Origin: an uncultured Pseudomonadota bacterium
GTDB lineage: Bacteria; Myxococcota_A; UBA796; CAJQPC01
Assembly (NCBI GenBank): GCA_913060515.1
Contig: CAJXRZ010000019.1
Span: 19,857-83,856 of the forward strand
Direction of reading: 5' to 3'
DNA: 64,000 bases
Below the pieces are notes generated by a model. It saw only the letters and a list, made by a program, of their open reading frames with translations. It had not been told where the DNA came from and did no database searches. The position numbers and the translations under genes were made by a program. Positions 52,138 to 62,593 of this stretch are shown piece by piece (within the stretch, counting starts at the first letter, position 1; every line of letters starts with the position of its first letter).

Positions 52138-53995
52138 CTGCAGCCTCTGCTCTGGATCGGATCGCTCATTGGGCTCTGGTTGGTGCTCGGCGCTACGGCG
52201 CTGGTGCTGGCTTGGAACAGTGGCGCCGGCCTGCTCGGGGCCCTCTGGAAATCGGCTGCCTGGACGCTGATCTGGGGCATGCCTGTAGGCGTGCTCATCG
52301 CCGCAAGCCGGAGCATGGAGCTTGGCTTTGTGCCGGTTGTGCTGGTGGGCTTTGTCGCCTTGTACACCCTGCTCTTCTTCCGCACGCCTGCCACCTTTCA
52401 GCGAAAGGCGGTGGTGGATCTGGAGAGCGGGGAGCTGTCCGATGCCTTGCAGGTTCTTGCCCAGGCTCAGGGCTTGGAGCCGCTGAGCCTCAAGCGCATC
52501 CAGACTGGAGCGAGCTTGGGGGCGCACGCCTTCGCCGCCAACCTGGCCAGACCAGCTGTGGCGATCGCCCATGGTCTGACCCAGCGCTTGGCGCCTCCTC
52601 AGCAGCTCGCCATCGGCGCCCACGAGATCGCACACATCCGCAGCGGAAGCTTGTGGTGGTTGATGGGCGGCTTTCCCTTGGGTTTGGCCTTGGGCTTCGC
52701 CAGCCTCTTCTTCGTGCCCGAAGGCACAGCCGCCGGCTTGGCGCTCTGTTTGGGAGTGCTCGTGCCGCATGTGGCTCAGCCGCGCCACCGAGCTGCTCTG
52801 TGATCGCATGGCCGCTGAGTGGACCTCGCCGGAGGACCTGCGCGCAGGACTGAGTCGCCTACACGCCGTACACCCGGTGGATCTCTCCAGCTTCTGGGGA
52901 CTCGCGGCCTACTCCCTGGCCACCCACCCTCCGCTGCCGGTGCGCTTGGCGGCGCTCGGCGACACCCAGACCGATGCCCAGGCCCACCGTGTGGCCGCTG
53001 CGCTGGGGCAGGGCTTGCTGCTCACCCTGCTGGGCGCCGCGGTGTTCTTTCAGCTGGGGTTTTGGGCCTTTCTGCTCTTGACTCTGACCCCCACGCTGCT
53101 GCTGAGCCTGGGGGCCAAGGCGGCCATTCAGCGGCAGCGCAAGCGAATGCCAGGGCAACGCAACTGGTGGGTCTGGGGCATCGTCCCGCTGTTGGCGTCT
53201 CTGGTTTGGCTCTTGCGGGCCATTCAGGCCGGAGAGGGGATTCTCTGGCCCGTGCTGCTCATGCTGGTGCTCGAGATCATCATCTTGCCCATGGCCTGGC
53301 GACACCGGAAGCGAAGCAAGGTCCTCAAGTCACTGAGCGCTGCTCTGGCTGCCCGGGACTTTGAGAGCATCTGGGCGCTGCGCAGCACCCAGGCCAAGCA
53401 GCTCTTTAGAGACCTGGCCTTGAACCACGATGTCTTGGCGGTCGGGGTTGTGCTGGACAAGTTTGGGGCGGCCAAGGAGCTGCAGGAGCTCATTCCGCGC
53501 TTTCCCCAAGCTGGACTGACCTTGGCCGACATCCTGGTGTACCGGGCCCCCCAGGCCAGTCTGTTGGCTGGAGAGGCGCTCTCGGAGCGCTTGCCCCAGG
53601 ACGCAGGCGGTCCTGTGGCGATGGGTCGGGCGCTGATTGCGTTGGGGGAGCTGGATCTGGCCCAAGGGCAGCTGGTGCGCGCCCAGGAGCTCCAGGGGGG
53701 CGCCGCCGCGGTCCTTCTCGAGGCGGAGTTGGCGCTCGCTCAAGAGCGCTTCGCTCTCTGTCACACACAGCTGCAGCGCGCCGAAGAGCTCGCCCCGGGT
53801 GACCCCTGGCTTGTGCTGCTCCGTGCGGATCTGGCGCTGACCTTGGGTGAACTGGACCAAGCGCAGGCGGACTTGGACCACGTCGCCGAGACGCTGGTGG
53901 CCATGCCGGTTCAAGGCATGAGCGTGCGCCTGGAGCAGCTCAGGGCGCGCCTGTCGGCCAGCCAAGGGCCAGCGGATGCTGACGCAGAGGAGTGA
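52138..53995 (+). pseudogene. M48 (HtpX-like) zinc peptidase with TPR-like C-terminus, split by +1 frameshift near 52768
   Basis: HEIAH in ORF 52180..52803; third ligand motif SRATELLCD and THP in ORF 52769..53995. Confidence 0.7.
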
Positions 53996-54917
53996 GCACC
54001 CGGAAGATGTCTACCGGTAGGGGACCGTCGATCTGACCCGCGGCGTCTCTTGGCGGGTACTTGGGGAAGAGCAGCACACCTGGGCAGGGTGCCCGCAGCT
54101 CAGAGGTGCCCGGTGCGCTCAGGAGCTCTCCAGCCTGCACGGGTTCGAAGTTGCGAAGTCCTGCCCGCAGGCGAAGCTCTGCGCTGGCGTAGGGCTGCTT
54201 GTGACTCGTACGCCACAGGCGCATCTTCGTCGCACCCGAGGTCATGTTGCCCAGATCGGAGCCGGACAAGATGGCCTCGGCTGCGTCCAGAGCCCGATCC
54301 ATGACGGCCAGGGCAAGCGCGGTGGTCTGGGGCCGCATGCCTTTCTGGGAGAGCTCGATCGTCAACGCCGCCTTCCCTTGGTCCCGCACATACTCGTCCA
54401 GGCAGCAGGTGCCGGTGGCGAAGGACTCCCCCATGGGACGGGTGACCCAGTCCTGGGCGCCCTGAAGCACTTGGGCCCACTGCTCCAGTACCGGGGACCA
54501 GGGGTGGATGTGGAAGGGCTGGGCCGTCGCTTCGATGGTCTGGTGAAGATCCACGACCAGATCGGCTTGGTCCAGCAGGGGCATCAACTCCGCCGCTCGG
54601 CTGCGCTCCCAGCTCGGTGGGCCTGGAAGGAAGACGCGGTTCAGATCGGCCTGGCCGAAGCGTCGGCCCAGTCGGGCGGCGGGCGGGTTGCCAAGGACCA
54701 CGCTCAGGCGACCTGCGAAGCGTCGGGTGCCCTTCTGCAGGGACTCGAGCAGGGCGATGGCCGCCGGCAGACTCCCGGTCTCATCGCCATGGGTCATGCA
54801 GCAGAGCACCACATGGAAAGGCCCCCCCTCGCCGGCCTGGGCCACGAAGGGGGGGAGAGAGGCGCTGGGGGGGCAGAGGCCCTCGAAGCGCGCGAGCAAG
54901 GCCTGAAGCTCTGACAT
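53940..54917 (-). CDS. Succinylglutamate desuccinylase/aspartoacylase family (M14-like)
   Basis: THGDETG, GNP.A, DLNRVF, VDLHQT, TIEL. Confidence 0.88.
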   Translation of the reverse strand: MSELQALLARFEGLCPPSASLPPFVAQAGEGGPFHVVLCCMTHGDETGSLPAAIALLESLQKGTRRFAGRLSVVLGNPPAARLGRRFGQADLNRVFLPGPPSWERSRAAELMPLLDQADLVVDLHQTIEATAQPFHIHPWSPVLEQWAQVLQGAQDWVTRPMGESFATGTCCLDEYVRDQGKAALTIELSQKGMRPQTTALALAVMDRALDAAEAILSGSDLGNMTSGATKMRLWRTSHKQPYASAELRLRAGLRNFEPVQAGELLSAPGTSELRAPCPGVLLFPKYPPRDAAGQIDGPLPVDIFRVLTPLRQHPLALGWPTGAP

Positions 54918-54934
54918 GGCCAGAGCCTACACCT

Positions 54935-56881
54935 TCAGGCCGCGGCTCGGTCAGCGCCTTGGCCGTGCATCGCGGTGTGGGGGAAGATGAAGCGCATCGT
55001 CGTGCCCTGCTGAGGGACCGATTCGATCTCGATTCGGCCACCCAGGGACACGGTGGCCTCCTTGAGGGAGGACATTCCGACGCCGCGTCCGCTGGTCTCG
55101 GTCGCGAACTCGCGGGTGCTCAGGCCGTCGGCGAACAGAGCCTCCTGGAGATCCGCTTGGGTCTCGCTGGGCAGTCCCATCTCCCTGGCCTTCTGGCGCA
55201 CCTGCTCCCAGTTCACGCCTGGTCCGTTGTCGCTGAGGCTGAGCACAAAGCTTGAGCCCTCGAGCGCAGTCACCAGTCGCAGCACGCCGCTCTGGTCGGT
55301 CCCGTGGTCGGCGGCGTTTCGCAAGGCGTGGACCATCGTATTCCAGAAGCTGCGCCAAGCGTGGGGTTCCAGGCGCAGGCCGTTGCCCTCGAAGTGCACC
55401 TCCAAATCCTTGCCCAGGCGTCCGCTGATGCGTTGGGCTTGTTGGGCCAGACGCTCCAGGCGGCGATCGGTGGGCTCGAGCAACCAGCTCTGCATGCGCT
55501 GCACCAGCTCTTGGTGAGGGGCGCCTTGCTCGGCGGCCTTGAGGGTGTCGCTGTATTCGCTCTGGCTGAGTTCTACGGCGCTGGTGTTGGACTGGGCCAT
55601 GAGCTGCTGTAGATCCTGCTGGAAGCTTGCCCAGCTCTCGACGATGCCCTTGCGAGCCGCTGGGCTCAGGGTGCCGTCATCGATCATCTGGGTCTCGGCT
55701 TCGTGGCACCGGGCGGTGAGCTTGCTCAGGCCAAAGAGGGAGCCGGAGCCCTTGAGGGTGTGAAGCTGACGTAGGAGCTCGACCCGGTTGCAGTTGGGGT
55801 CCTCGATACGGCCCATGATGAGGTCCGCCTCTTCCACGAAGGAGAGGAAGCCGCTGCGGTCGTTGACCAAGTGGCCGAACACCGCCATCAGCTCCAGCTG
55901 GCTCTCTTCAGCGGCGGCCTGGGCCATCGCTGCCGTCACATCGGTGAGCACCACCAACATGCCCGTGAGCTGCTCCTTGTCGTCCAGCAGGGGGGTGTAG
56001 GTGATCTGCACGGCACGCTCGCCGAGCTGCACCTTGGATGGCAGCTGCGAGATGCAGAGCTCCAGGAGCATGAAGCCGTCCATGATGGACTCCCAGGCCA
56101 GCTCGAACCAAGCGCCGGCGTCCGGGTTGTGCTCAGCGAGCAGCGCGCTGAAGGGAGTGCCTGCCGGAGCGTGTCCCATCCAAGCGTCTACGGCCGGGCT
56201 GCGCTCTGCGGACATGTTGCCTTGAGCGTCCAGGGTCACGAAGCCTTGACCGCAGTTGTCGAGGATCAAGCGCATGTCTTCGTTGCGTTGGTCTAAGGCC
56301 TGGGTTCGGGCCTGCACGATGAGCTCCAGCCCGATGACGTTGTCAAAGAAGCTGCGAGCGATCCATGCCGCGGCGGGGCTCTGAAGGACCACGAAGAGGG
56401 CGTGGACCAAGACCACCCAGATGGAGGCCTCGTAGTTGAAGACGCTGCTGGGAAGCAGGAAGTAGATCAACAGGTGATGGGTGGCCACGGTCACTGCCGC
56501 GACGACGATGACCATCGGGTTGCCGTAGACGGCGAGCAGACCCAAGAGCACGAAGAAGTAGAAGTGCATCTCGATCTGCATCGGCCCCTGGCCGAAGTGC
56601 ACGAGAAGACCACCGAAGCACATGGCGGCAAAGCCGTTGACCAGCGCTGCCTTTCGAGAAGGCAGCCCCTTCCACGCAAGGACGGGACCGACCAGGCAGG
56701 CGCTCGTCAGCAGGAAGGCCTTGAGAACGCCGGTCCCACAGAGTGCAGCGACACCCATGAAGACCGGAACGTGGAGGGCGAAGAAGATGACGACGATCTT
56801 GTTGATCCGGTCGACGTACTTCTGCTCCACCTCACTGACCGTCGGCGGCAGAACCACAAAGGATTTGATCTTCTCAAGCAT
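54935..56881 (-). CDS. Membrane-bound CheA-like kinase (TM sensor + PAS-like + Hpt + HATPase, no CheW domain)
   Basis: Hpt RQLHTLKG; HALRNAADHG, DNGPG, LFADGLST, SGRGVGM; protein ends right after the ATPase domain. Confidence 0.85.
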   Translation of the reverse strand: MLEKIKSFVVLPPTVSEVEQKYVDRINKIVVIFFALHVPVFMGVAALCGTGVLKAFLLTSACLVGPVLAWKGLPSRKAALVNGFAAMCFGGLLVHFGQGPMQIEMHFYFFVLLGLLAVYGNPMVIVVAAVTVATHHLLIYFLLPSSVFNYEASIWVVLVHALFVVLQSPAAAWIARSFFDNVIGLELIVQARTQALDQRNEDMRLILDNCGQGFVTLDAQGNMSAERSPAVDAWMGHAPAGTPFSALLAEHNPDAGAWFELAWESIMDGFMLLELCISQLPSKVQLGERAVQITYTPLLDDKEQLTGMLVVLTDVTAAMAQAAAEESQLELMAVFGHLVNDRSGFLSFVEEADLIMGRIEDPNCNRVELLRQLHTLKGSGSLFGLSKLTARCHEAETQMIDDGTLSPAARKGIVESWASFQQDLQQLMAQSNTSAVELSQSEYSDTLKAAEQGAPHQELVQRMQSWLLEPTDRRLERLAQQAQRISGRLGKDLEVHFEGNGLRLEPHAWRSFWNTMVHALRNAADHGTDQSGVLRLVTALEGSSFVLSLSDNGPGVNWEQVRQKAREMGLPSETQADLQEALFADGLSTREFATETSGRGVGMSSLKEATVSLGGRIEIESVPQQGTTMRFIFPHTAMHGQGADRAAA

Positions 56882-56897
56882 GAGGTTGGCTCTCGTT

Positions 56898-57500
56898 TTA
56901 GCGAAGACCGAAGGGGTCTACGGCGCGTTGAAGGCTTTGGCTCACTGCGCACCCGAACAGGGGTAGGGCGGGCACGGACTTGGTCTGCTGGAGACTGGAG
57001 AGGATCGCGACATCTCGGATGTCCGCGGCCTGCTTCCTGTCGGTGTACCCCCCCAGGTACTGGAGCTGATTGGCTGGGTCGACGAGCACGAGCAGGGGCG
57101 CTGCTTGCATGTGCCAGTCTTCGCTCAGGCCCTCAGGTGTGGTCTGGATGACCTCGAAACCCATGGCGGCGGCTTGCTCTGCCATGGCCGCGTCTTCACC
57201 GACCAAGATCAGCTTCTCTGCCACGCCCTCTGGGCGTTCGCTGGAGACCAGGTACTTGGCGACTCCTTGAGAGCACTTGCAGTCGGCGTAGAGGACATGG
57301 ATCGCCATCCATTTGCCGGTGTCCTCTTGTTTGCGCACCGTCACTACGGCAGCCTGCAGTGCGGGATCTTCCACCTCGGGCGAGGGCAGCGTGAGCAGGT
57401 GACTGCTCAGCAGGAAGGCGCAGACGACCAGGAGCATCGGTGCCCAGATTCCCAGGCTGATGCGAACCCACGCTGGGCTCTTGGAGAAGGGCGCGTCCAT
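56898..57500 (-). CDS. Membrane-anchored thioredoxin-like protein with CxC motif
   Basis: Single TM; HVLYADCKCS; AAPLLVLVDP..LQYLGGY; LFGCAV. Confidence 0.7.
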   Translation of the reverse strand: MDAPFSKSPAWVRISLGIWAPMLLVVCAFLLSSHLLTLPSPEVEDPALQAAVVTVRKQEDTGKWMAIHVLYADCKCSQGVAKYLVSSERPEGVAEKLILVGEDAAMAEQAAAMGFEVIQTTPEGLSEDWHMQAAPLLVLVDPANQLQYLGGYTDRKQAADIRDVAILSSLQQTKSVPALPLFGCAVSQSLQRAVDPFGLR

Positions 57501-57503
57501 GGA

Positions 57504-57872
57504 CTAGGCCGCCAGCTTCTTCACGGCTGCGACGAGCATCTCCGCCTTGAAGGGCTTGACGATCCAGCCCTTGGCGCCGTTGGCCTTGGCCTGGCGAATC
57601 AGGGCCGGCTGGGCCTCTGAGGTCAGCATCACGATGGGTACGCCGGCTGCGCTGCCGCTCTTGTGCACCGCCTCCAGCATCTGCAAGCCGTTCATGCGGG
57701 GCATGTTCACGTCGCAGATGACCATGGCCAGGTCGCTGTTGGCCTGAATTTTGGACTGACCGTCCATGCCGTCGACGGCTTCGACGACGGTGTAGCCCGC
57801 TTGGCTCAGCGCGATTCGCACCTGCTGGCGCACGGTGGAGGAGTCATCGACCACCAAGATCTTCTTTCCCAT
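57504..57872 (-). CDS. CheY-like single-domain response regulator
   Basis: ILVVDDS, ICDVNMPRMNG, MLTSE, WIVKPF. Confidence 0.95.
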   Translation of the reverse strand: MGKKILVVDDSSTVRQQVRIALSQAGYTVVEAVDGMDGQSKIQANSDLAMVICDVNMPRMNGLQMLEAVHKSGSAAGVPIVMLTSEAQPALIRQAKANGAKGWIVKPFKAEMLVAAVKKLAA

Positions 57873-57956
57873 TGCTTCAGCCTCCGGTCACTCGCGCTTG
57901 GAGCGACACAAGAAGACCCAACGGACCTGAAGACCCACACTTGAGACTTTCGCCGT

Positions 57957-58517
57957 TCAGCGGCTGGGCGCGATCCTCCGGCGGCGGGCGAAGAGTAGGC
58001 TGCCAAGCAGCAGAAACACGGAGACACCCGCCAACTTTGGGGTGGGTGAGGCGCTGCAGCCGCAGCCGCCGAGCTCACCGGCCAGGGTGGCGGCTCCCGA
58101 TCCGCTTGCCTCCTCGCACTCCACATCCTCGCTGCCTGAGCAATCGGAATCATCGCAGTCGACATCGCCATCGCCGTCGTTGTCGAATTCGTCCTCGCAG
58201 GAGGTCTCCGTCTCCTCACAGCTCTCTTCAGCCGAGCAGTCGTCGTCGGCGCAGTCCACGTCGTCGTCGCCGTCGTCGTCCTCGCCGTTGGTGCAGTCCT
58301 CTGTTCCGCTTCCAGCACAGGCTTCGTCTTCTGAGCAGTCGGAATCGTCGCAGTCCACGTCGTCGTCGCCGTCGTCGTCCTCCCCGTTGGTGCAGTCTTC
58401 GACGTCCACAACAACCCCGGAGTCAGAGTCGGTGGGGTCGTCGCCGGTCTCGGCGAAGGCGGGAGTTCCGAGCATCAAAGCAAAGGCGATCAGCGTCATT
58501 TGAGTCCTCTTGTCCAC
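57957..58517 (-). CDS. Small secreted Asp/Cys-repeat protein with MYXO-CTERM-like tail
   Basis: Signal peptide; three C.(NG/DE).D(D/N)DGD.DVDC.D.DC repeats; GGCGCS...FLLLGSLLFARRRR. Confidence 0.82.
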   Translation of the reverse strand: MDKRTQMTLIAFALMLGTPAFAETGDDPTDSDSGVVVDVEDCTNGEDDDGDDDVDCDDSDCSEDEACAGSGTEDCTNGEDDDGDDDVDCADDDCSAEESCEETETSCEDEFDNDGDGDVDCDDSDCSGSEDVECEEASGSGAATLAGELGGCGCSASPTPKLAGVSVFLLLGSLLFARRRRIAPSR

Positions 58518-59514: not shown

Positions 59515-60180
59515 TTAGACGCCGCGTTCGGCCGCCGGCCAGATCAGCTTGTGTTGCTGCAGGTTCAGGCGCGCCTGGAGGCGGTCCTCCAGCATCCACT
59601 CCACCAAGGTCTTGGGCTCCAGTTGGCCCCAGACGGGGCTGAGCAGCACGTGGGCCACCCGCTCGTGCAGCTTCTCCCGCAGCAGGATCTCCCGGGTCCA
59701 CTCGTAGTCGGCGCGGTCGGCGATCACCGACTTGACCTCGTGGTGGGGACGAAGCTTCTCGAGATTGGACCAGAGGTTCTTGTCTTCCTCGCCGGAGCCA
59801 GGGGGCTTCAAATCCAAGATCACCCCCACCTCCGCCGGAACCGGGCCAATGTCGATGGATCCGCTGGTCTCCAGCAAGACATGAGCGCCGGCATCTACCA
59901 GGCGCTGAAGCAGAGGGATGCACTGGCGCTGGGCCAAGGGCTCCCCGCCAGTGACCTCGATCAAGGGCACCCCAAAGGACAGAGCTTGTGCCACGACATC
60001 GTCGATGCTGCGGTGCTCTCCGCCGGTGAAGGTGTACTCCGAATCACACCAGGTGCAGCGCAGGTTGCAGCCTGTCAGGCGTACGAACACACAGGGCACG
60101 CCGGCATAGGAACTCTCGCCCTGAACGGAGAGGTAGACCTCGCTCAGGCGAAGGCGCTCATCTGCGGGGATTTCACTCAT
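59515..60180 (-). CDS. queE: 7-carboxy-7-deazaguanine synthase (radical SAM)
   Basis: SVQGE, FVRLTGCNLRCTWCD, VTGGEP, LETSG, LQQHKLIW. Confidence 0.93.
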   Translation of the reverse strand: MSEIPADERLRLSEVYLSVQGESSYAGVPCVFVRLTGCNLRCTWCDSEYTFTGGEHRSIDDVVAQALSFGVPLIEVTGGEPLAQRQCIPLLQRLVDAGAHVLLETSGSIDIGPVPAEVGVILDLKPPGSGEEDKNLWSNLEKLRPHHEVKSVIADRADYEWTREILLREKLHERVAHVLLSPVWGQLEPKTLVEWMLEDRLQARLNLQQHKLIWPAAERGV

Positions 60181-60238: not shown

Positions 60239-61633
60239 GTGCCAGTGCCCAAGTACCGCAATGAAGTCGACTCCCTGGGGACCGTCCGTGTGCCCAACAA
60301 GGCCTACTACGGGGCGCAGACCAAGCGCGCGATCGACAACTTCCCGGTCAGCGGGCAGCCCATGCCCTTGCGCTTCATCCACGCATTGGCCCTGGTCAAG
60401 AAGTCGGCCTGCCACGCCAACGAGGATCTGGGGCTGATCGAGACCGAGATGGCCGAGTGGATGCAGCAGGCGGCTCAAGAGGTGATCGATGGCGACTGGG
60501 ACGAGCACTTCCCAATCGATGTCTTCCAGACTGGCTCGGGCACCTCGACGAACATGAACGCGAACGAGGTCATCGGGAACCGCGCCAGCGAGCTGATGGG
60601 CGGAGAGCTGGGCGCACGTCACCCCGTGCACCCCAACGACCACGTCAACATGAGTCAGTCTTCCAATGACGTGATCCCCACCGCGCTGCATCTGGCGGGG
60701 GCCATGGCCTTGCACCAGGACCTGCTGCCCGCACTAAAGTCCCTCCACAAGGAGCTGGCTGCCAAGGCGGAGGAGTGGGACCGCATCGTGCTCTCGGGCC
60801 GCACCCACCTGATGGACGCCACGCCCATCCGCTTGGGTCAGGTCTTCTCTGGCTACGCGGCCCAGATTGATAAGGGCATCCAACGCGCAGAGGCCGCCAT
60901 GCAGCCGCTCCTGGAGCTGGCGCTCGGTGGCACGGCCGTTGGCACCGGCCTGAACTGCCCCGAGGGCTTCGCCGAGCTGGCCATCCGCCGCATCGTCGAG
61001 GAGACCCTCTTGGACTTCCACCGCGCAGAGAACCCTTTCGAGGCGCAATCTGCCCGTGATGCGGTGGTCGAGGTCAGCGGACAACTCAAGGTGATCGCGG
61101 TCTCCCTGAGCAAGATCGCCAACGACATTCGCATGATGGCCAGCGGCCCGCGGGCTGGACTTGGGGAGCTGATCCTCCCCGCAGTGCAACCCGGCAGCTC
61201 GATCATGCCGGGCAAGGTCAACCCGGTGCACTGCGAGATGGTCGTGATGGTCGCCGCCCAGGTCATGGGCAACGACGTCGCCATCACCCACGGCGGGGCA
61301 GGCGGGCAGCTTCAACTCAACGCCATGCTGCCCCTGTTGGCCCACAATCTGCTCAACAGCGTGGAGCTGCTCTCCGGGGCGGCCCGTACCTTCGGAGTGC
61401 GCTGTGTGCGCGCCCTGAAGGCCAATGAGGCCCAGTGCCAGGCCACCTTGGAGCGCAACCTGTCTATGGGCACGGCCTTGGCGCCGGCGCTCGGCTACGA
61501 TGCGGCCGCCGAGCTGGCCAAGAAGGCCTATGCCCAGGGAACGAGCGTGCGGGAGCAGGCATTGGCGGACGGCGTGCTGCCTGCCGATGAGCTGGACCGG
61601 CTCTTGGATCCCATCTCTCTGACAGGAGCCTAA
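60239..61633 (+). CDS. fumC: Class II fumarate hydratase
   Basis: QTGSGTSTNMNANEV, HPNDHVNMSQSSND, GRTHLMDATP, GSSIMPGKVNP. Confidence 0.93.
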   Translation: MPVPKYRNEVDSLGTVRVPNKAYYGAQTKRAIDNFPVSGQPMPLRFIHALALVKKSACHANEDLGLIETEMAEWMQQAAQEVIDGDWDEHFPIDVFQTGSGTSTNMNANEVIGNRASELMGGELGARHPVHPNDHVNMSQSSNDVIPTALHLAGAMALHQDLLPALKSLHKELAAKAEEWDRIVLSGRTHLMDATPIRLGQVFSGYAAQIDKGIQRAEAAMQPLLELALGGTAVGTGLNCPEGFAELAIRRIVEETLLDFHRAENPFEAQSARDAVVEVSGQLKVIAVSLSKIANDIRMMASGPRAGLGELILPAVQPGSSIMPGKVNPVHCEMVVMVAAQVMGNDVAITHGGAGGQLQLNAMLPLLAHNLLNSVELLSGAARTFGVRCVRALKANEAQCQATLERNLSMGTALAPALGYDAAAELAKKAYAQGTSVREQALADGVLPADELDRLLDPISLTGA

Positions 61634-61660: not shown

Positions 61661-62593
61661 ATGGGTAGGAGACTTTCAATGCCTGCATCTTCGGTCAATG
61701 GACACGCCTTTGTCGTGCTTGCTGGGGGCCTTGCGCCTGCCAAGATGGGCACAGAAAAGGTCGTGGAGGCCCTTCAAGGCACCTTCAGACGCGACAGCTA
61801 CGCGCCCCCGATGCTGCCACGCGTCGCCATGGAGATCCTGCGCTTCTCACAGGCCCCGGTGACCATTGAGCTGTCCCGCGACGTGGAGCCTCTTCTTGCC
61901 GAGGATCCACTGCTGACCGCTCAGATTCTCCGTGCGGCCAACGCCCCTGCAATGGGCGCAAAGAAGCCGATTCGCTCAATCCGTCAGGCCGTCACCCGCT
62001 TGGGACTGCGCGGTCTGCGCGACGTCGTGATCACCGTGAGTCTGCGCAGTCGGGTGTTTCGTACGCCGAGCTACCAGGCCGAGCTGGACGCGCTCTTCAG
62101 CCACTCCATGGCCATGGGCACCATCTCGCAGCAGGTCGCCGCAGCCACAGGAGGAGATGCCCGCTTCGCCTACCTCTGTGGGCTGCTCTCGGATCTTGGG
62201 ATCGCTGCGTCCCTGTTGGTCTTTGGAGAGCTCACCGAAGGACCGCCGCCACTCTTCACCCTCTGGCCCGCGATGCTCGAAGTCCACGAGGAGGCCGCCG
62301 CCGCGGTAGGACAGGCGTGGTCCCTTCCGGAGGAAGTTGTCGCCGTGATCGGCGCGCACCATCGGAGCCCCAGTGGCCCTCACGCCAAGCTGCAATCCAC
62401 TCTGGCTGTGGCCGAGGAGATCGCGGTGCTCTTGGGGCAGCACTTGGGGTGTCAGGATCCAAGCTGGGCCGCCTTCTTGAGCGAAGAGCGCTTCACTTCT
62501 GCGCGCGAGGCACTAAAATTGAGCGACGCTCAGTTCGAGGCCATTTTGGATAGCTCAGCACGCCAACTTTCCCCACCGAAGCGGGTTGCCTGA
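61661..62593 (+). CDS. Stand-alone HDOD domain protein
   Basis: PPMLPRVAMEIL, EDPLLTAQILRAAN, SIRQAVTRLG, GLLSDLG, WSLPEEV..VIGAHH. Confidence 0.88.
   Translation: MGRRLSMPASSVNGHAFVVLAGGLAPAKMGTEKVVEALQGTFRRDSYAPPMLPRVAMEILRFSQAPVTIELSRDVEPLLAEDPLLTAQILRAANAPAMGAKKPIRSIRQAVTRLGLRGLRDVVITVSLRSRVFRTPSYQAELDALFSHSMAMGTISQQVAAATGGDARFAYLCGLLSDLGIAASLLVFGELTEGPPPLFTLWPAMLEVHEEAAAAVGQAWSLPEEVVAVIGAHHRSPSGPHAKLQSTLAVAEEIAVLLGQHLGCQDPSWAAFLSEERFTSAREALKLSDAQFEAILDSSARQLSPPKRVA

Follow-up and report, generated by a model that had tools for sequence, protein, structure and literature searches.

A six-helix membrane domain encoded beside a thioredoxin-like protein: what looks like a widespread sensory input of CheA-class kinases unlinked to CheW

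In the RegB/PrrB - SenC/PrrC - RegA/PrrA systems of Rhodobacter, a six-transmembrane (six-TM) kinase, an anchored thioredoxin-fold protein and a response regulator serve redox and oxygen signaling; the kinase, RegB, is of the HisKA type and has a redox Cys as well as a quinone site, and SenC is a Sco-type CxxxC...H copper protein. The MHYT domain, which also has six TM helices, carries Met-His-Tyr motifs near its outer face and is a proposed sensor of O2, CO or NO. HtrVIII, a six-TM methyl-accepting chemotaxis protein (MCP) of haloarchaea, is an aerophilic (aerotaxis) transducer with proposed heme binding (PMC13401364, PMC7289035) and has been proposed to sense O2 (PMC13401364). Here we describe a three-gene locus from an uncultured bacterium, located in a stretch of 64,000 nucleotides of contig CAJXRZ010000019.1 (assembly GCA_913060515.1, positions 19,857 to 83,856), which is called the window below and to which all positions refer. 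The genes encode a CheY-like response regulator, a thioredoxin-like CxC protein (the middle gene, for short mid) and a membrane-bound CheA-class kinase. As a whole, the module looks like a widespread, uncharacterized redox, gas or metal sensing system.

Our preferred reading, which we put at a probability of about 0.55, is that a single expressed operon encodes a self-contained, CheW-free sensory phosphorelay with a two-protein membrane sensor. The three genes lie on the minus strand with intergenic gaps of 3 and 16 nt, the kinase gene (648 amino acids, aa) spanning 54935-56881; a GGAGG stands 8 nt before the ATG of the CheY-like gene. The features are as follows, with structural assignments partly based on AlphaFold2 (AF2) models and their predicted local distance difference test scores (pLDDT).

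57504..57872 (-), single-domain CheY-like response regulator, 122 aa (Pfam Response_reg, E 1e-24)
56898..57500 (-), mid, 200 aa, predicted N-in anchor and periplasmic thioredoxin fold (AF2 mean pLDDT 92.7, Foldseek, conservation)
56354..56881 (-), predicted six-TM sensor domain, N-in/C-in, kinase residues 1-176 (AF2 mean pLDDT 91.6, positive-inside counts, conservation)
55877..56353 (-), signaling helix continuous with TM6, then PAS-like domain, kinase residues 177-335 (AF2 helix 154-199 and a weak PAS_4 match)
55562..55876 (-), internal Hpt domain (P1-like), kinase residues 336-440 (Pfam Hpt PF01627, E 1.4e-9, match residues 363-428)
54935..55561 (-), CheA-type P3-end/P4 ATPase core, kinase residues 441-648 plus stop (NCBIfam CheA models, residues 423-636)
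54871..54895 (-), apparent transcript 3' boundary, 40-64 nt past the kinase stop, inside the start of the next gene

This layout bears out an earlier sequence-only reading of the locus: the open reading frames (ORFs) are found exactly where it had placed them, with the same 3 and 16 bp spacing, and every element it had listed for the kinase is borne out (a multi-TM region, a PAS-like segment, an internal Hpt with HTLKG, a CheA-type ATPase and no CheW-like domain). The PAS_4 match at residues 238-317 is weak (E 0.006); in homologues PAS_4 is precomputed or detected, and the region has conserved blocks LDNxxQGFxT...VVxSDxT. The phospho-acceptor H374 lies in the HTLKG motif, and H374, T375, K377, G378 and E396 are invariant in 28 full-length homologues. 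Residues H374, K377, H393 and E396 align with H48, K51, H67 and E70 of the P1 domain of Escherichia coli CheA. When searched against the PDB, the kinase-family profile matches E. coli CheA residues 289-508 of 654 (the P3 end and P4) with an E of 7e-50, and CheA P1 domains as well. The ATPase motifs are an N box HxxRNAxDHG, a G1 box DxGxG and a G2 box GRGVG, and Pfam HATPase_c covers residues 518-635. No PF01584 (P5/CheW-like) match was found in the kinase, whose C-terminus lies 12 residues past the HATPase match, and the same holds for all listed homologues. H-kinase_dim (PF02895) is not called on this kinase and is called on the canonical CheA of the same genome; the alignment to CheA begins at residue 289, within or after P3. 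Because the profile matches both P4 and P1 of CheA, with the H/K/H/E residues aligning, we assign the kinase on sequence grounds to the CheA class, with an internal P1 and without P2 or P5. In the CheY-like protein, residues DD9/10, D54, T84 and K106 are all present; the NCBIfam CheY model scores 87.5 bits, under its equivalog cut-off of 189.

No family model covers the six-TM input domain, and the PDB contains no relative of it. Pfam gave no family at E<=1 on kinase residues 1-200, MHYT included. The AF2 model (45 sequences) has helices at residues 15-48, 52-72, 75-96, 99-119, 122-142 and 154-199, the last of which continues into the cytoplasm. The mean K+R count over the 28 homologues is 5.1 at the N-terminus, 1.6 in loop 72-78 and 4.5 after TM6, and 0-0.2 in loops 49-51, 97-100 and 143-153, a distribution that supports the N-in/C-in topology. 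In this arrangement a His/Glu cluster (H37, H95, E104, H106, H135/H136 and H160) falls in the half of the membrane that faces the periplasm. The topology puts H95 at the periplasmic end of TM3 and H37 in the middle of TM1, while E104/H106 (TM4), H135/H136 (TM5) and H160 (TM6) sit one to two turns beneath the periplasmic surface. The sequence-only reading had picked out the intramembrane His motifs LVHFG (H95), IEMHF (E104/M105/H106), THHL (H135/H136) and LVHAL (H160), and had proposed their conservation as a test of itself. All seven residues H95, E104, M105, H106, H135, H136 and H160 are invariant in the 28 full-length homologues (~45% identity). With MCP- and HisKA-type members added, E104, H106, H136 and H160 are still invariant, and H37, H95 and H135 are conserved at >=90%. 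A periplasmic loop of the domain, LPxSVFNYxA, is also conserved. PDB profile and Foldseek searches led us to reject homology of the domain to cytochrome oxidase subunit I, or indeed to any membrane protein of solved structure. A literature search covering DUF6436, membrane-bound or P5-less CheA, and MASE-type or His-rich six-TM sensors returned nothing on this family.

The partner protein agrees with its earlier description as having one TM helix, a thioredoxin-like domain with CKC and a C-terminal FGC: the AF2 model shows a TM helix at residues 10-35 (TM ~14-36) followed by a thioredoxin fold, and the three Cys are invariant in 50 homologues. Foldseek (E 6e-8 to 1e-3) ranks the thioredoxin-like structures 3u5r, 2cvb and 2ywi first, followed by ResA, CcmG, StoA and TlpA-type proteins, with a probability of 1.00 for 3u5r, 2cvb, ResA and CcmG. 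A basic stretch precedes the anchor (K+R 2.9, D+E 0.4), which places the thioredoxin fold in the periplasm. The complete set of residues invariant among the 50 homologues is H34, H68, C74, C76, E95, P135, Y148, G150, Y152, P180, G183 and C184. The anchor has H34 at its periplasmic end, at a membrane depth equal to that of the sensor His cluster. C74 takes the first-Cys position of the thioredoxin CxxC at the N-terminus of helix alpha-1, and P135, located ahead of strand 136-140, is probably the cis-Pro. A CxxC active site is absent from mid; the invariant C74-x-C76 is found instead, together with the third Cys, C184, within a C-terminal LPxFGC motif (P180-x-x-G183-C184). DUF6436 (PF20029) scores 24.7 bits on mid, under its cut-off of 27.3, and 33 of the 50 relatives match this family at E<=1e-3 (best 2.2e-7), so by profile score mid appears to be a distant relative of DUF6436 and no called member. 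Identity with a Sco1/SenC copper chaperone was rejected, as mid has no SCO1-SenC Pfam match at E<=1 and no CxxxC...H motif.

The neighborhoods of related genes tie the two proteins together. Among 80 kinase-family loci, which are the basis of all neighbor counts given here and in which all flanking ORFs were clustered, a hidden Markov model of mid has matches in 73, mostly directly upstream of the kinase and on the same strand. Two of the seven remaining loci are cut by contig ends, and whole-genome searches placed mid elsewhere in the genome or at a contig edge in five of the seven. For MCP-type loci with enough flanking sequence, mid is adjacent in 5 of 5 distinct loci. A sample of 151 Myxococcota genomes gave a strong match to the membrane domain in six, and mid in the same six, on the same contig and within ~4 kb; no genome had mid only, and three genomes with weak partial domain matches lacked mid. 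The expectation that the CxC gene accompanies this membrane domain whatever the output, on which the sequence-only reading had staked itself, thus agrees with both the kinase and the MCP-type loci. One MCP-type carrier on a metagenomic scaffold (scaffold_452_c1, locus L171), with mid directly upstream, heads a che operon that includes a second MCP, CheY, CheB, CheR and CheX, from which it appears that the sensor pair can feed a conventional pathway too.

A search with the domain profile of 1.84 billion representative proteins (clusters at 50% identity) gave 4269 carriers at E<=1e-3, 998 of them at E<=1e-10. In 20 carriers scanned for output domains, the majority were CheA-like kinases, and the others included MCPs, either bare or with HAMP or PAS, a HisKA-HATPase-REC hybrid, a kinase with only HATPase_c detected and a kinase-CheX fusion. 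The fusion (P0206, 855 aa, metagenomic) is a kinase-family member with a C-terminal CheX domain and speaks for a functional connection of the kinase with the CheX-like phosphatase. The hybrid, from an Archangium sp. metagenome-assembled genome (MAG; JAUXMT010000050.1, locus L085), is flanked by genes for a TetR regulator and a PP2C phosphatase. The anticipated modularity across kinase, MCP and GGDEF outputs holds for the first two, whereas no GGDEF output occurs among the 20 carriers, which leaves such outputs possible in others. From these domain combinations, the six-TM domain is best described as a portable input module. Relatives of the kinase family are present in at least 234 species genomes from Myxococcota, Planctomycetota, Acidobacteriota, Nitrospirota, Burkholderiales and Bdellovibrionota-type lineages; named kinase-type carriers include the cultured planctomycete Neorhodopirellula pilleata (Planctomycetota), Usitatibacter, Gemmatimonadaceae, Bryobacterales and Pseudobacteriovorax. 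MCP-type carriers are found in Bacteriovorax stolpii, Bdellovibrionia, Tepidisphaeraceae, Vicinamibacterales, Bryobacterales and Puniceicoccaceae, with Verrucomicrobiota included. A scan of metagenome contigs with MCP-type queries caught the universal MCP signaling hairpin: only 2 of its 80 loci had the domain, on contigs too short to show neighbors.

Only four genes recur beside the kinase: besides mid, these are genes for a CheY-like protein (51 loci; orthologues at E<1e-25, in varying positions), a CheX-like phosphatase (39 loci) and a short soluble protein with an MCP signaling domain (sMCP; 31 loci). All four neighbors are found together in 19 of the 80 loci, and mid and the kinase alone in 26. 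CheW and CheR are found at a single locus and are absent from the other 79. A need of the kinase for CheW or an MCP encoded elsewhere did not emerge, the kinase family being unlinked to CheW and CheR. The proposal of a receptor-independent CheA-class system is supported as far as linkage to CheW and CheR is concerned, but calls for caution in view of the sMCP and CheX-like genes. The products of these two genes share a C-terminal peptide, (E/A)-G-(D/E/S)-h-x-L-F, which by analogy with the NWETF tether of MCPs suggests a common docking site; examples are L016:4406-4933, L082:8175-8681, L016:3480-4397 and L082:9350-10258, with ~60 more in loci L003-L082.

The source assembly (6.87 Mb) has one copy of the sensor domain, one of mid and one canonical che operon, on another contig (C41), with CheW, CheR, CheB and a CheA that has P3 and P5. 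No CheW, MCP, CheR or CheB is encoded in the 64-kb window, as had been noticed for the surroundings of the trio, and the only CheW domains of the genome belong to that canonical operon. A search of the source genome for a CheX-like gene gave no match. Away from the operon, tandem sMCP genes (572-1477 and 1514-2389) stand at the start of contig C25 (L175); the second ends in ...EAGDILLF and is the sole ORF (>=60 aa) of the genome with that ending.

The three genes are real and expressed, since single contigs from two seawater metatranscriptomes span all of them (2996 nt, 54871-57843, and 3385 nt, 54895-58279). The RNA contigs end at 54871 (run X2, adapter read-through) and 54895 (run X5). RNA depth at this end drops from 37 to 0 and from 75 to 6.9, and the depth of the matching metagenome DNA is flat at 20. 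For a tricistronic mRNA, we regard the metatranscriptome contigs as good evidence that falls short of proof. The next gene, encoding an AstE/AspA-family protein (succinylglutamate desuccinylase/aspartoacylase-like; 53940-54917, minus strand), has its ATG 17 nt past the kinase stop; given the drop in depth, it is at least ten-fold less represented in the RNA contigs, or not at all. On the other side, 84 nt upstream of the CheY gene, lies a gene (57957-58517, minus strand) whose secreted product has a signal peptide and ends in a MYXO-CTERM-like tail (GCGCSASP...LLFARRRR); its repeats are acidic and rich in Cys (DCTNGEDDDGDDDVDC...). One metatranscriptome contig extends from the operon into this gene. 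The tail of its product points to Myxococcota as the source. The nearest kinase homologues come from Myxococcota and Polyangiaceae MAGs, and the DNA of the locus is present in seawater and marine metagenomes. Farther away are a QueE-like radical S-adenosylmethionine (SAM) gene (59515-60180, minus strand; called by eye from its CNLRCTWCDS motif) and plus-strand genes for a class II fumarase (60239-61633) and an HDOD-domain protein (61661-62593). In the clustering of flanking ORFs, none of these three recurs near the module in other genomes.

More distant relatives were found by tblastn of plasmids with the domain, which gave MCPs in Paracoccus, Komagataeibacter, Rhizobium and the haloarchaeon Halobaculum limi. 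The H. limi MCP matches the domain profile with an hhalign probability of 97.7% (E 1.4e-12) and keeps H37, H95, E104, H106, H136 and H160, and the His cluster persists in the distant haloarchaeal and alphaproteobacterial members in general. The H. limi gene (in locus L184, plasmid NZ_CP120469.1, 387512-396036) is flanked by nirK on one side and, on the other, by a gene annotated as cbb3-type oxidase subunit I, and it also adjoins a heme-copper oxidase subunit III gene and a gene of a CGCGG radical-SAM ribosomally synthesized and post-translationally modified peptide (rSAM-RiPP) system. We count this setting among respiratory genes in favor of the preferred reading. The 122-aa gene upstream of the Komagataeibacter MCP was considered as a possible mid and turned out to be no relative of it.

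In the phosphorelay that we favor, the sensor would be a two-protein membrane unit, in which the six-helix domain provides the His/Glu cluster in the outer-leaflet half of the membrane and the anchor of mid would contribute its invariant His at the depth of the cluster, with the periplasmic CxC...C site above the short conserved loops of the sensor. The cluster would most likely hold a metal or heme cofactor, and the unit would report an oxidant, a respiratory gas or a thiol-redox signal; the candidate signals are O2 or NO, an oxidant, thiol redox state or a metal. The partner may act as a co-sensor (of thiol or metal state) or as a factor that loads and maintains the cofactor. The sequence-only reading had likewise had a periplasmic thiol protein relay redox state to a possibly heme-binding membrane sensor; the relay and the heme both stand here as candidates. 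A conformational change would then pass through TM6 and its continuous helix to the PAS-like domain and modulate the CheA-type P4 ATPase, which is predicted to phosphorylate H374 of the internal Hpt, from where the phosphoryl group would move to Asp54 of the CheY-like protein.

Part of the same evidence could be read differently. The partner might be a dedicated Sco/TlpA-like assembly factor that delivers or reduces a metal (e.g. Cu) for the cluster, the membrane domain alone being the sensor. Its membrane-anchored thioredoxin fold, as in Sco1/SenC and TlpA, and its invariant Cys/His set would suit such a role, and the distant six-TM members that keep the His cluster with no mid nearby show the cluster to be more universal than the partner. 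We nevertheless consider this unlikely, given the lack of a SCO1-SenC match and of a CxxxC...H motif, and a strict adjacency, a 1:1 copy number and an invariant anchor His that suit a stable complex at least equally well. If, on the other hand, the site with three Cys (and His) of mid were itself the receptor for a periplasmic thiophilic metal, metalloid or electrophile, the six-TM domain would only transduce. The CxC, the third Cys and His68 at the canonical thioredoxin active-site position of a periplasmic domain make this conceivable, but it would leave unexplained an invariant intramembrane His/Glu cluster that is kept even in members without mid, and metal-resistance genes are not recurrent in the neighborhoods; we judge it very doubtful. 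The kinase might also lack autonomy and work in a Che-like complex with sMCP (and with CheX in relatives), the membrane domain mainly localizing it. For this speak the frequencies of the sMCP (31/80) and CheX-like (39/80) genes, the 19 loci with all accessory genes, the common C-terminal peptide, the two sMCP genes of the source genome and the kinase-CheX fusion. Yet the kinase has no P5, CheW is missing from 79 of the 80 loci, in 26 of the 80 mid and the kinase are on their own, and the membrane domain is also the input of ordinary MCPs, as one would expect if it were a sensor; we find this account rather improbable.

Several observations nonetheless weigh against the self-contained phosphorelay with its two-protein sensor. 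No mid is found within 5 kb of the Archangium HisKA-type member, nor near the distant alphaproteobacterial and haloarchaeal MCP members; the domain can thus apparently function without the partner and, because of these members, mid is best taken, from its distribution, as the marker of a large subfamily and not of the whole superfamily. The ligand set of the cluster is uncertain, as some MCP-type members have L or F in place of M105, and some members Q or E in place of H135. A profile search of the PDB with the six-TM domain gave no chain at E<=10, Foldseek gave nothing better than an E of 0.68 (and that match is no oxidase), and the domain resembles no heme or metal protein in the PDB in sequence or fold. 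In the clustering of flanking ORFs, no conserved neighbor names a specific signal. The sMCP genes near 31 of the kinases and elsewhere in the source genome make a receptor-like input possible. The metatranscriptome contigs, finally, may contain DNA and carry no strand information.

A bolder version, which we offer tentatively and hold to be possible at best, would make the six-TM domain a so far unnamed superfamily of membrane-embedded, cofactor-binding gas or redox sensors in bacteria and haloarchaea, HtrVIII included. One large bacterial branch would have become an obligate heterocomplex with mid, whose anchor His would complete the cofactor site, and would have founded a CheW-less kinase/CheY/CheX/sMCP pathway with a shared docking peptide. 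Most wholly intramembrane bacterial sensor domains have no known signal, and this one is abundant and spread over many phyla. Its near-invariant His/Glu cluster and dedicated thioredoxin-like partner lead to a testable hypothesis of a new mechanism for sensing oxygen, redox state or metal. The family also indicates that CheA-class kinases can take their input straight from a sensor, with neither CheW nor a receptor array in between, and it may give molecular access to HtrVIII, the aerotaxis receptor of haloarchaea that has long gone unexplained.

Taken one by one, the parts of the module (CheA-class kinase, thioredoxin fold, REC domain) are of known kinds. What is unusual is the wiring, in which a CheA-class kinase lacking P5 takes its input directly from a membrane sensor fused to it, and the searchable literature contains no account of such a sensor paired with a CxC thioredoxin-like protein. 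In comparison with CheA (class II/HPK9), the kinase shares an Hpt with the H/K/H/E network, a P4 ATPase (E 7e-50) and a CheY-like partner. It differs in that its Hpt is internal, behind the six-TM and PAS-like regions, the sensor is fused directly to the kinase, P2 and P5 are missing, CheW, CheR and CheB are unlinked and H-kinase_dim is uncalled by Pfam. Like TlpA, ResA and CcmG, mid has a thioredoxin fold and is anchored through its N-terminal region, and a Cys stands at the start of its helix alpha-1. In contrast to these proteins, it has CxC in place of CxxC, a third invariant Cys (LPxFGC) and an invariant anchor His, and its genomic partner is a sensor and not a cytochrome-maturation system.

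On the sensor side, the MHYT domain is likewise a portable six-TM input with conserved His near the periplasmic face, TM4 here carrying EMHF/Y; unlike MHYT, the domain has no Pfam MHYT match at E<=1 and no three-fold MHYT repeat, and its Met is not conserved in MCP-type members. HtrVIII (Htr8; OE3167F of Halobacterium salinarum, HVO_1779 of Haloferax volcanii) similarly has an N-terminal six-TM, His-bearing domain fused to an output. The likeness to cytochrome oxidase subunit I claimed for HtrVIII is not reproduced for the six-TM domain (no PDB sequence match), and the haloarchaeal relative found here, from H. limi, has no mid nearby; kinship with HtrVIII, which was compared by description only, is a lead. 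RegB/SenC/RegA shares the three-gene logic, but here the kinase is CheA-type, the partner is a CxC...C protein with no SCO1-SenC match and the regulator has no DNA-binding domain. By analogy, we regard RegB/SenC/RegA as the nearest functional counterpart of the module and HtrVIII as the nearest possible relative of its sensor.

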